From NCBI GenBank assembly GCA_964602245.1, contig CAZRPY010000001.1, positions 88,246 through 152,245 on the forward strand: a stretch of DNA of 64,000 nucleotides, written 5' to 3'. Positions 5,549-60,669 of the stretch are shown one piece after another. Source of the stretch: an uncultured Methanosarcinales archaeon. GTDB taxonomy: Archaea > Nanobdellota > Nanobdellia > Woesearchaeales > JACPIF01. Made by a program: the position numbers and the translations under genes. The notes under the pieces are model-generated. The model saw only the letters and a list, made by a program, of their open reading frames with translations. It ran no database searches and was not told the DNA's origin. How positions within the stretch are numbered: position 1 is the stretch's first letter; each line of letters opens with the position of its first letter.

Positions 5549-6793
5549 ATGGCAATCTTTCTGGGTATGGATATTGATACTATGAGGAAGATAGATTATT
5601 GGGTAGGGATACCTGTATGCTTCTTTCTATCAATTATACATAATATTGGCAAGCTATTTAGAGGTAAAACTCGGGTAAAGAGTCCTAGGAAGTTCTTGTT
5701 TATGGAGATATCTGAGATGGGTAGCACTATTATTGCTTATTCTGCAATGTATTATATCAAAAAGAAGTATCTTGGAGCACAGCTTTACTTTCTTCTATTT
5801 AAAAGGAATAAAGAAAGCATAGATATCCTGAAAATAGTGCCTCAGGAGAATGTTATAACAATAAGAGATAGTTCTTTTCCAGCGTTAACTATTGATACGT
5901 TAGCAGCTATCTGGAAGCTTAGGAGAGAGAGGATTGATGTTTCATTCGACTTAGAGCTTTTTTCCAGATATTCTGCAATAATAAATTATTTAATAGGAGC
6001 TAAAGCTAGAGTTGGATTTCATAACTTTACAGCAGAAGGGCTTTACCGAGGAAATTTACAAACGCATGATGTAATGTACAATGCTTATTATCACATGAGC
6101 CAGAATTTTATGGCATTAGCTAAGGCATTAGAAGGGCCTGATGAAATACCTTTTCTAAAACAAGCAATAGATAAGAAAGAGGTTAAAGTGCCCAAGATAA
6201 TTAGCGAGAAAAGGGATAGAGAAGCTATAATCAAAAAAATACAGACATTAAATCCTGCAATCAATGAGAAAAAGAGAATAATATTGTTAAATCCCGGGGC
6301 TAGCAAATTGTTGCCATTAAGAGAATGGCCTCTGCAATACTATAAAGAATTGACAAAAAATCTGCTTGAGGATAAGAATAATTTTGTTGTTATAACTGGG
6401 CTTATAGGTGATAAGGCTTATGCACAGGAGATTTGTAAGTTTGCTGGAGATAAATGCCTTGATTTTACAGGAATGACTAAGACATTAAGAGAGTTAATTG
6501 ATTTGTATAATACTGCTGATGTATTAGTAACAAATGATTCAGGGCCTGCACATTTCTCTGCATTATCTGATATTAGAACAATTGTGTTTTATGGTCCTGA
6601 GACTCCTGTGCTATATGCACCTTTAGGAAGTAATTATACTGCTTTGTACTCAGGATTTGCCTGCTCGCCTTGTGTTTCTGCATATAATCATAGAAAAAGT
6701 CCATGCACTAACAACTTATGTTTGCAAGTGATAAAGCCTGAGGTTGTTCTTAAACTTATAAAGGATCATTTTAATGCAAGAGGAGATAAGTAA
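5549..6793 (+). CDS. glycosyltransferase family 9 (heptosyltransferase-like)
   Basis: LNPGASKLLPLREWP and VTNDSGPAHFSAL motifs typical of GT9. Confidence 0.8.
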   Translation: MAIFLGMDIDTMRKIDYWVGIPVCFFLSIIHNIGKLFRGKTRVKSPRKFLFMEISEMGSTIIAYSAMYYIKKKYLGAQLYFLLFKRNKESIDILKIVPQENVITIRDSSFPALTIDTLAAIWKLRRERIDVSFDLELFSRYSAIINYLIGAKARVGFHNFTAEGLYRGNLQTHDVMYNAYYHMSQNFMALAKALEGPDEIPFLKQAIDKKEVKVPKIISEKRDREAIIKKIQTLNPAINEKKRIILLNPGASKLLPLREWPLQYYKELTKNLLEDKNNFVVITGLIGDKAYAQEICKFAGDKCLDFTGMTKTLRELIDLYNTADVLVTNDSGPAHFSALSDIRTIVFYGPETPVLYAPLGSNYTALYSGFACSPCVSAYNHRKSPCTNNLCLQVIKPEVVLKLIKDHFNARGDK

Positions 6794-7892
6794 GATGCTG
6801 GTAAAGATTCTAGGCAGGATAATTAAGCCTAAAAATAAAAAGATTCCTGGAACAGTAAGGAACATACTTATTATTAGATCTGGTGCTTTAGGAGATGTGT
6901 TAATGACAACTCCGTTAATAGCTGCTATAAGAAAGAAGTACAAAAATGCTAAGATAAGTTATCTTGTAGGAGAGTGGTCTTCTATTGCTTTAAAAAATAA
7001 TCCTAATATTAATGAGATAATTGAATTTGATGATAGAATAATATTTCAAAGAAATATGGGAGAGATAATTAAACTAATTAGAAAAATTAGGGCTTTAATA
7101 TTTGATATTTGTTTTATATTAGATAAATCATATCATTGGAATCTTTTTGCATATCTTGCAAAAATACCATTTAGAATTGGGTTTGAGAGGAATGGAGAGG
7201 GGTTAGCTAATAACTTGGATGTTAAGTTTGATGCTAGTAAGCATGAGATTGAATATTATATGGATATTGCAAGGCTAATTGGAGTAAAAAATGCTAGCAA
7301 CGAGATGAAAATATTTACAACAGCGAAAGATAGGAAAAAGGTAAATAAATTCTTTAGGAAAAATAAGTTAATAAATAAGATTGTAATAGGTATTGCTGCT
7401 GGAGGGGCTGAAAATCCTGGACAGGCTATGTATGAAAAGAGATGGACGGTTGAAAAGTATATTGGGTTAACAAATATCTTGACTGAGAATCATAAAATAA
7501 TTGTGTTGCTGTTTGGGGGCAGGAATGATGCTAGTGTTAATAAGCTGATTAAGGAACAATGCTTGCATAAAAATCAAGTGTTAGATATTTCTAACTATAA
7601 CTTACATGAAGCTTTTGAAATGATGAAAAAATGCAGTTTATTTGTAACGCATGATTCTGGAGCAATGCATATTGCAGGAGCTTCCAAGGCTAAGCTAATT
7701 GCTTTATTTGGGCCAACTCAGGCAGAAAGGTTTGCTCCCAAGAATGCTATTATTATTAAGAGTCCTGCTGAAGGATGCCCTTGCTATGATATGTATGGCG
7801 ATTATAATAGGAAAGTTGCTGAGAAGTGTATGAGGGCTATCAGCGTTGATACTGTTTACCAGGAGATTAAGAAAATTATTAAGAATATTTAG
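6774..7892 (+). CDS. glycosyltransferase family 9
   Basis: IRSGALGDVLMTTPLIAAIRKKYKNAKISYLV and VTHDSGAMHIAGA. Overlaps the upstream gene by 20 nt; an alternative ATG sits at 6795. Confidence 0.8.
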   Translation: MQEEISKMLVKILGRIIKPKNKKIPGTVRNILIIRSGALGDVLMTTPLIAAIRKKYKNAKISYLVGEWSSIALKNNPNINEIIEFDDRIIFQRNMGEIIKLIRKIRALIFDICFILDKSYHWNLFAYLAKIPFRIGFERNGEGLANNLDVKFDASKHEIEYYMDIARLIGVKNASNEMKIFTTAKDRKKVNKFFRKNKLINKIVIGIAAGGAENPGQAMYEKRWTVEKYIGLTNILTENHKIIVLLFGGRNDASVNKLIKEQCLHKNQVLDISNYNLHEAFEMMKKCSLFVTHDSGAMHIAGASKAKLIALFGPTQAERFAPKNAIIIKSPAEGCPCYDMYGDYNRKVAEKCMRAISVDTVYQEIKKIIKNI

Positions 7893-41577: not shown

Positions 41578-42780
41578 TTATTTACCTCTCACAGAATATT
41601 TTCCTAGAACAATTTGTTGCAGTTCATTTCTCTTTTTCATAGTACGTATAAGTTGTCTTAACCTAAAAGAGACATTAGAGTTCGAAGTGAAACAAGTTTG
41701 AATTTGATATAGAGTAATTGTTTTATTCGAGAAATTGGTTAATATGTGTTTTCTAATGGCTGTAGCTTCATCCTTCAAACGAGCTTTTCGTAGTGTGGTT
41801 TTAGCCATCTTTACTTTTCTTTGAAAAACTTCTTCTCTATGTAATAAACTTAGGTCATATTTTTTAAGAAGACTGAACAAACGAGAAAGTTGAATAACTC
41901 CTTCTGAGCTGATTCTTATGACCCACTTATCTCCTTTTTTATTTTTTGACCAAGATATACCGAATCTTGTTAATAATTTACCAAATTTTTCAAGAAGTAG
42001 TAAATTTCCCTCTTGATGTAATGTTATCTCAGAGTTTGACTTTGCTTTAGACATTCCAGCTTCATCCATAAAAAATGCGCACAAGAGAGCTAGCTCATAT
42101 TCTTTTCCTAGTGATTCAGATGCCTTAATTATATTACTTCTTATGGCCTTTCCAGAATCCAGTTTTGTCATAAATGATCCCGCCTTTCTGATTAACTGCG
42201 GGATAGTTAGACCATGTTTGGTGCTCTGTGGAAGTCTATCATAAATAAAACCCATCTTATTTAAGAGCTCTATTATTTTTAATTGCCCTTCTGGTTTTTG
42301 ATACCAAACAAATTTGTTTTTATCCTTTCGAATATGACCATCACCAACAGAGAGACAAAAAATAAAATGCCAAAGCGGGCTATATATGATGGGGAATTTA
42401 CCGGCGAAGGTGATTGAGCTACTTCCACAGTCATCGTTAAATTGTACTATTTCATTAAGAAGAGTCTTTTCTGCAGACAAATCTACAATCTTTTTAAAGG
42501 TTTGAGTGTCAATTTTTTCATTTTTAGTAAAGTTATGAAACCAATAATCAGGGACATTTAGAGTCTTAGCGATGTGAAATTTAAATCTATGGCTACTTGT
42601 TAAAAGATTTATTATGTCATCTTTTGCTTTATCGGTAAGTTTTACATACCCCAAAATATCCCAAGGAAATACTAAATTTTGATTTTGATTTTCCATAATT
42701 TGTCCAGATTTGGGAAAGTCAAATAAAAATGTATTGGATTTGGAATTTGGAAGTAAAACTCTCTTTAGCATCGTTCCCAT
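41578..42780 (-). CDS. double-motif LAGLIDADG-like protein (homing-endonuclease fold candidate)
   Basis: Two candidate motifs, FIFCLSVGDGHI and LLCAFFMDEAGMS, about 100 aa apart. 400 aa basic protein. Confidence 0.35.
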   Translation of the reverse strand: MGTMLKRVLLPNSKSNTFLFDFPKSGQIMENQNQNLVFPWDILGYVKLTDKAKDDIINLLTSSHRFKFHIAKTLNVPDYWFHNFTKNEKIDTQTFKKIVDLSAEKTLLNEIVQFNDDCGSSSITFAGKFPIIYSPLWHFIFCLSVGDGHIRKDKNKFVWYQKPEGQLKIIELLNKMGFIYDRLPQSTKHGLTIPQLIRKAGSFMTKLDSGKAIRSNIIKASESLGKEYELALLCAFFMDEAGMSKAKSNSEITLHQEGNLLLLEKFGKLLTRFGISWSKNKKGDKWVIRISSEGVIQLSRLFSLLKKYDLSLLHREEVFQRKVKMAKTTLRKARLKDEATAIRKHILTNFSNKTITLYQIQTCFTSNSNVSFRLRQLIRTMKKRNELQQIVLGKYSVRGK

Positions 42781-43676: not shown

Positions 43677-44699
43677 ATGCAAATTTCTAAGAAAGAATTA
43701 AATAAGCTAAAGAAGATTAGAGAAGAAATTAGAAAAAGTTCTTTTAAACCAATAGGTTGGATAAAAAATCCACATCTGCAAACTATAATAGGTGTTTCTT
43801 CTAAGTTTAAGGGAGAATTTGAGAGTAAAAGATTAATAATTCCTGTTGAGAAAGGAAAGGTTGCTGTAGATTGCTCATGGAAATTTAATAGAGAGAATAA
43901 GCCTACATTAATTATAATGCATGGAATTGTTGGATCTAGCTCTGCATCTTATGTTAAGAGAATTGCTTATAAAGCTTTTAAGAATGGGTTCAATGTTGCT
44001 AGAATAAATTTAAGAGGTTTTGGTAATACAGAGCATTTATCTGAGAAAATATATCATGCTGGACAGAGTAATGATATGAAGCGAGTAATAAATTATATGA
44101 ATAAGAAATATAAGCTCAGTAAATTTTATCTTTTAGGATTTTCTTTAGGAGGGAATTTGTGCTTGAAATTTGCTGGAGAATCAAAAGATAATAAGGTTAG
44201 AGGTGTTGCTTGCATATCGCCATTAGTTGATTTAGAAGTGAGCTGGAAGCCAATAGAAAATCCAGAGAACATACTTTATAGAGTAATATTTATCAAAGGT
44301 TTAAAAAATCTTATAAGAAGAAAGGCAAAACTATTTCCTAATATCTATTACCTTAAAAAATTAAAAGGTCTAAATACAATTAAAGATTTTGATGAGAGAT
44401 ACCAGGCATCTTTAAATGGCTTTAAGGATGCTATTGATTACTATAAGAAAACAAGTGCAATCAGGGTTATTAATAAAATTAGGATTCCTACTTTAATTAT
44501 TCATTCTCATGATGATACACTTACACCTTATGAGCCATTAACTAGAAAAGATGTTAGGGATAATCCTTATATTATTATTCTTATATCGCATTACGGTGGG
44601 CATGTGGGATTTCTTGGGAAAGATGAAAATGAGGATAGACATTGGGCAGAGAATAGAGTTATGGAGTTTTTTAAGATTCTAGAATCGCAAGGCTTTTAA
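43677..44699 (+). CDS. alpha/beta hydrolase (YheT-like)
   Basis: GFSLGGN nucleophile elbow; HG oxyanion region; 340 aa. Confidence 0.75.
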   Translation: MQISKKELNKLKKIREEIRKSSFKPIGWIKNPHLQTIIGVSSKFKGEFESKRLIIPVEKGKVAVDCSWKFNRENKPTLIIMHGIVGSSSASYVKRIAYKAFKNGFNVARINLRGFGNTEHLSEKIYHAGQSNDMKRVINYMNKKYKLSKFYLLGFSLGGNLCLKFAGESKDNKVRGVACISPLVDLEVSWKPIENPENILYRVIFIKGLKNLIRRKAKLFPNIYYLKKLKGLNTIKDFDERYQASLNGFKDAIDYYKKTSAIRVINKIRIPTLIIHSHDDTLTPYEPLTRKDVRDNPYIIILISHYGGHVGFLGKDENEDRHWAENRVMEFFKILESQGF

Positions 44700-44721
44700 A
44701 TATCTCTTTATTACCTAGCTT

Positions 44722-44841
44722 TCGTGGACGGTCATAGTGGCATGGTTCCACCTGATCCCATTCCGAACTCAGAAGTTAAACATGCCAACGTCTTGGATTG
44801 TACTGTACTTTAGTACGGGAAGTCCAAGAAGCTGTCCCACT
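44722..44841 (+). rRNA. 5S ribosomal RNA (archaeal type)
   Basis: ggtcatagtggc...ccgaactcagaagttaaac...ggattgtactgtactttagtacgggaag aligns to archaeal 5S. The terminal helix GUGGACGG pairs with CUGUCCCAC. Followed by T-runs. Confidence 0.85.
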
Positions 44842-44941
44842 TTATATTATAATAGATTAGATTTTTCTTTGTTTTTTGATTCTATTTGCACTCTTCGGCA
44901 TATTGCTATACCTAGAGTCCGCTTCTCATATATTTTAATGT

Positions 44942-45026
44942 GCACTAGCGGACCAATGGCATAGCCTCGTGTTCGAGGCTCGTAATGCTAATTATTATTC
45001 TTTCAATACTTTTTGCTTAATGCAAA
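44942..45026 (+). repeat. conserved structured element, copy A (gcact..gcggacc, hairpin gcatagcctcg-loop-cgaggctcgtaatgc, T-rich tract, ttgcttaatgcaa)
   Basis: Near-identical to 60431..60524 over about 90 nt in the same orientation; extended 11-bp bulged hairpin. Confidence 0.6.
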
Positions 45027-45050
45027 TTCGATTTCTATAAATACTATCTT

Positions 45051-60289: not shown

Positions 60290-60430
60290 TTTAGCCTTAT
60301 ATTTTTAATTTGTACTTTTTTATTGTAATTCTTTTATTTTTTAAATTGTATTTTTGTTTATTTTTTATTTACTTAATTTGCAATACGGTTACGAACTACG
60401 CAACATACCTGTCAGCTAGTACACTTTACA

Positions 60431-60524
60431 GCACTGATAAGCGGACCTAGTGCATAGCCTCGTATTTCGAGGCTCGTTAATGCTAATTATTATTTTATTA
60501 ATATTTTTTATTTGCTTAATGCAA
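60431..60524 (+). repeat. conserved structured element, copy B (paralog of 44942..45026)
   Basis: gcactgataagcggacctagtgcatagcctcgtatttcgaggctcgttaatgctaattattatttt...ttgcttaatgcaa; the same hairpin stems with different loop and bulge. Confidence 0.6.
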
Positions 60525-60669
60525 GTTACTATTAATTATTTTAAATAGTACTTTCTGCCATTTTTATTGCCTTATGCAGTTATCGCAAGCACTATAGCCA
60601 GTACTTGCTTTTGGCATTATAATAATGGAAAGAAGATGGAATTTATAAAGGTTGTGGGGTTTTGTATGC

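Follow-up and report, generated by a model that had tools for sequence, protein, structure and literature searches.

Two copies (A and B) of a structured element lie in the stretch of DNA analysed here (the window, 64 kb in all), and both are best explained as short, non-coding, imperfectly palindromic repeats of a non-autonomous, MITE- or REPIN-like kind that are mobile, or were so until recently, in a lineage of Woesearchaeota; we put the probability of this reading at about 0.7. The MITE-like assignment follows from an element that is small, non-coding, dispersed and palindromic, whose presence at a given site varies between related genomes, that is restricted to one lineage and that is far better conserved than its surroundings. 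Copy A lies beside a 5S rRNA gene, and this position is incidental. For Woesearchaeota the result is a repeat family that is defined and comes with a structure model. The family represents an ordinary kind of miniature mobile element, and the result also removes a false lead, that of a new terminator or processing RNA linked to 5S. To our knowledge, very little has been described of the mobile DNA of Woesearchaeota beyond bulk MITE counts.

The host is a DPANN archaeon with 33% GC, assigned to Woesearchaeota by searches with its RadA and NFACT proteins. The window is densely coding and includes genes for archaeal RadA, uS2, LigT, a TRAM protein, NFACT_N and GlmS, together with a large glycosylation cluster inside which the GC content is 27–30% (52–58 kb). 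Neither 16S nor 23S accompanies the 5S gene, and ARAGORN found no tRNA gene in the 64 kb.

Palindromic architecture of the two copies

A sequence-only reading had described a conserved structured element of about 90 nt at 44942–45026, about 100 nt downstream of the 5S rRNA gene, together with a second, almost identical copy. The start given for copy A lies 102 nt past the 5S gene, the second copy is present at 60431–60524, and the layout was exact, running from gcactagcggacc through the bulged hairpin and a T-rich tract to TTTGCTTAATGCAA. The size had been set too small, since conservation runs upstream of 44942 into a central stem (H1) and a degenerate left arm; the whole element measures ~145–155 nt in A and B and ~145–215 nt across the family (Table 1). 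The near identity of the two copies holds for the core from AGCGGACC to TAATTATTAT (48 of 54 columns) and was overstated elsewhere, with 76 of 95 columns over the span first considered. The limits of copy A were taken from its similarity to B and to two copies found outside the window (L010 and L034a), with a start at ATTTGCA and an end at TGCAAAT, the inverse of that start. Orientation was defined by the well-kept right arm.

Table 1. Positions of the 5S rRNA gene and of the parts of copies A and B in the window.
Feature	Position	Strand	Details
5S rRNA gene	44724–44840	+	Rfam, 79.4 bits; sole Rfam-detectable RNA gene of the window
5S with its own oligo-T trailer, outside the element	44724–44877	+	T5 44862–44866 and T6 44872–44877, both before the element
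Copy A, whole element	44884–45028	+	Edges approximate: left ~±10 nt, right uncertain
Copy A, left-arm remnant hairpin	44897–44912	-	GGUAUA-GCAA-UAUGCC, one G-U pair; read directly from the sequence
Copy A, central stem H1	44917–44953	+	GTCCGCT 44917–44923 : AGCGGAC 44947–44953, 23-nt AT-rich loop; from predicted folds
Copy A, right-arm bulged hairpin H2	44959–44988	+	GCAT+AGCCTCG, loop TGTT, CGAGGCT, 3' bulge CGTA, ATGC; from folds and covariation
Copy A, tail	44989–45028	+	TAATTATTAT, T-rich stretch (T5 45008–45012), TTTGCTTAATGCAA (45012–45025), end TGCAAAT
Copy B, whole element	60375–60527	+	Edges approximate
Copy B, left-arm hairpin	60388–60404	-	GUUGCG-UAGUU-CGUAAC, one G-U pair; from the match to model R1
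Copy B, central stem H1	60411–60446	+	GTCAGCT 60411–60417 : AGCGGAC 60440–60446, one A/G mismatch, 22-nt loop
Copy B, right-arm bulged hairpin H2	60452–60483	+	GCAT+AGCCTCG, loop TATTT, CGAGGCT, bulge CGTTA, ATGC
Copy B, tail	60484–60527	+	TAATTATTAT, T-rich stretch, TTTGCTTAATGCAA (60511–60524), end TGCAAGT

The overall build is an imperfect palindrome, an inverted doublet of hairpin units in which the left arm has decayed. H1 forms the centre of the palindrome and reads GTCCGCY – 21 to 24 nt – RGCGGAC across copies, with a T-A pair replaced by C-G in L005/L010. The right arm carries the bulged hairpin H2, the first strand of which is GCATAGCCTCG in copy A, followed by TGTT-CGAGGCT-CGTA-ATGC. 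H2 is present in the minimum-free-energy fold of copy A, and the corresponding fold of copy B contains its 7-bp upper stem, in both cases with RNA and DNA parameters alike. The 3' bulge of H2, CGT(T)A, is kept in sequence between copies.

The left arm of copy A shows inverted similarity to the right arm, both as a motif match (44904–44923, minus strand) and in an alignment of arm to arm; the G-U pair of its remnant hairpin on the minus strand corresponds to a C-A mismatch on the plus strand. In copy B the left-arm hairpin has the same loop as H2 of L010 and a similar bulge (CGUAU) next to it, and its stem, unlike that of H2 in sequence, is still paired. A covariance model made of H1 and H2 (R1) also matched the opposite strand of the same loci, with the match on the minus strand of copy B (60370–60446) scoring 29.6 bits (E = 7e-4). 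Since R1 matches both strands, the left arm is a decayed mirror image of the right. The two arms are unequal, the left arms of A and B being ~50% identical (by eye, from a pairwise alignment) compared with 89% for the right-arm core.

The ends of the element read (TA)AYTTGCA ... TGCAARTTA, an inverted match over only 8–9 bp, and local alignments of arm to arm gave no consistent termini. TTA stands on both sides of three of the five known copies (B, L034a and L034b), where it overlaps the inverted end TAAYTTGCA and is indistinguishable from it; at copy A the flanking TTA is not clean, and the relatives are too diverged for junctions to be placed at the level of single bases. TTAC, which B, L010 and L034a have immediately beyond the left end and which is also present in most H1 loops, behaves as part of the element and not as a target. 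The element contains no ORF, its sole ATG lying in the context atg-gca-tag. The left arm of L034a (L034 6710–6758) has ~45 extra nt with two more perfect hairpins (AGGAAGC-TAT-GCTTCCT and GGAAC-ATA-GTTCC), which suggests either that the family gains hairpins as modules or that one insertion is nested in another.

Structural constraint and dispersal of the family

The bulged hairpin, proposed at first from one pair of copies, is real: compensatory substitutions between copies preserve its pairing, as expected of a sequence that folds as a single-stranded nucleic acid. In a six-row alignment of arms, standard pairs occupied 96% of cells and changes on both sides were seen in 8 of 18 pairs, including 6 of the 7 pairs of the upper H2 stem, these being counts from few sequences on an alignment fitted to the model, in which the left arms are not independent loci. 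None of 500 shuffles reached the observed covariation values, and when partners were slid by 1–3 columns only 32–40% of cells were paired. The effect is seen when L034a (GCAC-AGCCUUC/GUA/GAAGGC(G)U/CGUA/GUGC) is set beside A (GCAU-AGCCUCG/UGUU/CGAGGCU/CGUA/AUGC). These data indicate that the H2 hairpin is under structural selection, and the existence of subfamilies in which the stem sequence has changed while the pairing was kept suggests that propagation depends on the folding of the arm hairpin. Chance is excluded, with no match to the hairpin pattern in 100 dinucleotide-preserving shuffles and four occurrences of the 5' motif against 0.09 expected.

A search for copies beyond A and B found three more, giving five in total, and none further within the 64-kb window. 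One of the three, L005/L010 (L005 and L010 are the same sequence), comes from a related archaeon and was found by pattern scan. The other two are diverged copies on a single contig, L034, at 6760–6842 on the plus strand (L034a, 43 bits with R1) and at 2520–2594 on the minus strand (L034b, 29 bits). L034 derives from ENA sample ERZ27284378, as do L038 and L039, both 100% identical to the window at the nucleotide level, and from this common sample we infer that L034 and the window are parts of one genome. L038 (contig k139_221540), an independent assembly of the window's genome, has a break at position 60650 of the window, some 120 nt away from copy B, which is weakly consistent with a repeat disturbing assembly.

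Elsewhere, nhmmer --max and model R1 run over 292 kb of archaeal loci returned nothing beyond the five copies, and ~200 kb of loci from relatives held none. When 185,579 species genomes and JGI metagenomes, two large collections that are without the source genome, were scanned for exact patterns, only L005/L010 and high-GC bacterial chance matches came up, and viral contigs, phage records and plasmid records yielded nothing relevant. Between genomes, the core of the element is ~85–90% identical where the flanking proteins are 60–83% identical and the intergenic DNA is unalignable.

A comparison with related genomes was possible at four of the five insertion sites, and at none of these four did the relatives have the element. 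At site B, ~270 nt separate the rpsB start from a conserved upstream hairpin in the window, compared with 40–50 nt in L020 (RadA 83% identical) and L023 (75%), both of which keep the order RadA-TRAM-LigT-uS2 without the element; copy B sits inside ~220 nt missing from relatives, inserted between the hairpin element upstream of rpsB and the rpsB start. At site A the element lies between the 5S trailer and NFACT_N, and the DNA to its left matches the 5S trailer of the relative L024. The synteny of NTP-transferase, 5S and NFACT_N is kept in L024/L025/L026 (NFACT 77% identical) and in L027, and in L024/L025 and L027 a convergent gene follows ~50 nt past the 5S, without the element. The copy in L010 occupies 254 nt between two genes that are 11–13 nt apart in L034 and L035, and L034a lies in a 205-nt gap between blaI-like and blaR-like genes that measures 39 nt in L035. 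In the closest relative, L019, four tandem copies of TATATGTCCT at the contig end (4990–5061), orthologous to the right flank of copy B, stand exactly where copy B would be.

The hairpin upstream of rpsB belongs to a conserved structured element in its own right (60552–60645, minus strand), in which TTTATAA is followed ~25–30 nt later by a 10-bp hairpin, GCAAGUAC-UGGCUAUA-GUGCUUGC, and then by CUGCAUnAGGCAAUAAA. It is found at the same place in L019, L020 and L023, with TTTATAA invariant and compensatory changes in 4 of 13 pairs, and it had no Rfam match. It could be an rpsB mRNA leader or an unannotated small RNA.

Alternative explanations

It is unlikely that the copies represent a family of small ncRNA genes, each giving a plus-strand RNA of ~60–120 nt (H1 and H2) that ends at the T-runs and that has spread by duplication. 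Such a family would account for a GC-rich hairpin kept by covariation in a genome of 33% GC, and for a right arm that is far better conserved than the left. The pattern of a hairpin followed by a T-tract, pointed out by the sequence-only reading, does occur on the plus strand in A and B and would provide the 3' end; however, the T-run after H2 is absent or weak in L010, L034a and L034b, and the pattern is therefore not kept in the other copies. The orientation of the copies would also fit an independent transcription unit. All four copies located between protein genes of the same direction (B, L010, L034a and L034b) are antisense to them, a suggestive bias that is statistically weak, and copy A shares its sense with the 5S gene but runs opposite to NFACT_N. 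Against an RNA gene, neither the five copies nor the DNA upstream of them showed a conserved promoter-like box and no TATA box stands at a fixed distance from them, whereas a clear promoter-like box, TTTAAATA, precedes the 5S gene by ~25 nt and the rpsB leader has its TTTATAA. Rfam returned nothing credible overlapping A or B even at E ≤ 10, with only the 5S gene passing the gathering threshold in the window. A palindrome with a decayed mirror arm would be unexpected for an RNA gene, and the element is missing from the orthologous sites at all four comparable loci. The suggestion of a small ncRNA is disfavoured on these grounds, namely the lack of promoter conservation and of an Rfam family, the insertion polymorphism and the palindromic build.

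Several specific structures were tried and rejected. A tRNA, whether intact, split or permuted, was set aside, as ARAGORN found none in either the window or L005; neither GCGGACC nor the 7-bp stem can be read as an acceptor stem, since both the D-arm and the T-arm are missing and the loops have the wrong lengths. Inspection revealed no K-turn, C/D or H/ACA boxes, bulge-helix-bulge, group II intron domain V or origin-recognition-box. The motif GYGGAC...CATAG resembles the 5' end of 5S rRNA, but the Rfam 5S model gave no match to the element at E ≤ 10, and a 5S-derived origin was rejected.

The odds are also poor for a host-retained, REP-like cis element, mobile in the past, whose hairpins would affect mRNA stability, processing or read-through when present in sense or antisense transcripts. 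All copies are intergenic, several of them within one apparent operon, and the right arm is selectively conserved, as might be expected of such an element. The left-arm hairpins of A and B also pair better on the gene-sense strand (G-U as opposed to C-A), but this argument concerns two pairs only and the symmetry of the arms predicts it equally. Close relatives are without the element at the same sites, which makes any role in the host dispensable and recent.

A terminator-like or processing element had been suggested by the sequence-only reading; as a terminator or 3'-processing signal of the 5S rRNA transcription unit, this is highly improbable. Copy A does follow the 5S gene closely and on the same strand, and the T-runs after a GC-rich hairpin on one strand in A and B recall archaeal oligo-T and bacterial intrinsic terminators. 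By contrast with these, the T-run of the element lies 20–25 nt from the stem and is unconserved in the other copies, and the element is antisense to its neighbours. Archaeal termination depends, as far as established, on an oligo-T tract and does not need a hairpin. The 5S gene has an oligo-T trailer of its own, in which T5 and T6 precede the element and which aligns by eye with the trailer of L024. Past the 5S gene, this trailer is all that the window shares with the 5S loci of L024, L025 and L027, which are without the element. The other four copies (B, L010, L034a and L034b) adjoin no RNA gene, and a scan for bacterial-style terminators found nothing.

It is scarcely credible that A and B are direct repeats (attL/attR) bounding an integrated island: two repeats in the same orientation 15.5 kb apart and a lower GC content at 52–58 kb would fit it, but the interval holds rpsB and the glycosylation cluster, gene order is kept in a relative that has neither repeat (L023 and L027 lie next to each other on its contig JACPIF010000008.1), A and B differ by indels in the core, and further copies lie elsewhere.

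Known mobile repeats and a possible route of propagation

Prokaryotic MITEs include Correia/NEMIS in Neisseria, ERIC, RUP and the SM MITEs of Sulfolobus. The element resembles MITEs in being small (less than ~500 bp), non-coding, multi-copy and intergenic, in its imperfectly palindromic build, the inverted ends of which match over 8–9 bp, and in its confinement to one lineage, with dispersed copies and with orthologous sites that are filled in one genome and empty in another. It differs from them in that no parent insertion sequence was found and one arm is better conserved, and in that its arm hairpins are kept by compensation, something that recognition of a terminal-inverted-repeat duplex by a DDE enzyme would not need. 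In a census of MITEs, a Woesearchaea genome was among the archaea with the highest density, at 105 per Mb (PMC11602168).

REP elements and REPIN doublets mobilised by RAYT transposases are described in bacteria (PMC3116915, PMC3733652), and the REP unit is given as an imperfect palindrome of 20–40 nt that ends, on one side, in a conserved GTAG or CGTC tag left unpaired (PMC3733652). REP units resemble the element in form, in that both are short imperfect palindromes with an unpaired conserved motif beside the stem, both are extragenic, an inverted pair of units gives a larger hairpin, and subfamilies vary in stem and loop while the pairing is kept. However, the 30-nt unit of the element has an internal 3' bulge (CGTA, CGTTA or CGTT) and not a terminal GTAG or CGTC tag; these two tetranucleotides occur only in L034a, by chance. 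The host is moreover an archaeon, and no RAYT gene was seen.

The TnpA of IS200/IS605 recognises subterminal hairpins in single-stranded DNA (PMC6006769). With IS200/IS605 and their non-autonomous derivatives, PATEs, the element shares a subterminal, imperfect, bulged hairpin a few nt from the end, a priority of structure over sequence, an orientation bias and the lack of a clear target duplication. In IS200/IS605 the end hairpins are on the same strand, the ends are not inverted, the whole is non-palindromic and insertion takes place 3' of a fixed tetra- or pentanucleotide, whereas the hairpins of the element studied here lie near both ends in mirror orientation; in addition, there is no tnpA or tnpB near the element, and no conserved target tetranucleotide is demonstrable.

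In the mobile-repeat reading, each arm carries, or once carried, a GC-rich hairpin with the bulge CGT(T)A on its 3' side, followed by the terminal motif TGCWARTTA. A transposase encoded elsewhere in the genome may recognise the arm hairpin and the end motif, and would have moved the element into AT-rich intergenic DNA. Folding of the hairpin, most simply in single-stranded DNA, would be required for propagation, and the hairpin is probably required for mobilisation. Because hairpin folding appears to be needed, an enzyme of the HUH/Y1 type, like that of IS200/IS605 or RAYT, is indicated; a possible alternative is an IS5/PIF-type DDE enzyme producing a 3-bp TTA target duplication, since TTA flanks three copies. 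With regard to orientation, selection would be the simplest explanation, the copies that survive being those with the T-rich strand antisense to neighbouring genes; turned the other way, their oligo-T runs would probably cause archaeal transcription to stop within operons. The bias might alternatively reflect a replication-linked strand bias of single-strand transposition.

The main weaknesses of the mobile-element reading are the unequal decay of the arms and the fact that no transposase was found. The divergence of the left arm is unusual for recently transposed copies, and the right arm could be under host-level selection. Among 45 ORFs of the window, inspected by eye over their first 150 residues, none looked like a transposase, RAYT included, nor did the precomputed Pfam lists of L034 and L038 contain one, and the analysis revealed no autonomous partner in which these ends enclose a transposase gene. 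A more speculative proposal, which we consider doubtful, is that the hairpin doublets are an archaeal counterpart of bacterial REPIN-RAYT, kept over the long term in a DPANN lineage by a single-copy, vertically transmitted HUH/Y1 transposase acting on single-stranded DNA, with the right arm as the recognition and cleavage hairpin. Were the hairpin an HUH-type substrate, REP/REPIN-like biology would be extended to archaea.

The family marks recent genome rearrangement, as seen in a remodelled 5S neighbourhood and an expanded rpsB leader region. The repeat may contribute to assembly breaks in MAGs and could serve as a strain marker.

The surroundings of the 5S gene (43677–45050) are remodelled in comparison with relatives. 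An alpha/beta-hydrolase gene (43677–44699, Pfam Abhydrolase_1) between the NTP-transferase and 5S genes is present in the window only, and a gene of 367–380 aa found between 5S and NFACT_N in L024–L027 is missing from the window, where copy A stands at that junction. The 5S genes of the closest relatives at this locus measure 149 nt as opposed to 117 (L024 11770–11918; L025 8445–8593, minus strand). They carry a 32-nt insertion, TAAAGGCAAGCTGAGGCTTCCTTTATGAGATA, after ...CCGAACUCAGAA, and score 39.9 bits with Rfam, compared with 79 for the window and L027; the insertion may be intron-like. In the window, the NTP-transferase and UDP-glucose dehydrogenase genes are separated by a 400-aa ORF (41578–42780, minus strand) that matches no Pfam family and is absent from that position in L024 and L025. 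The UDP-glucose dehydrogenase of L027 itself carries an intein with a LAGLIDADG domain, and the 400-aa ORF may represent an insertion, either of a homing-endonuclease-like gene that stands by itself or of some other kind.
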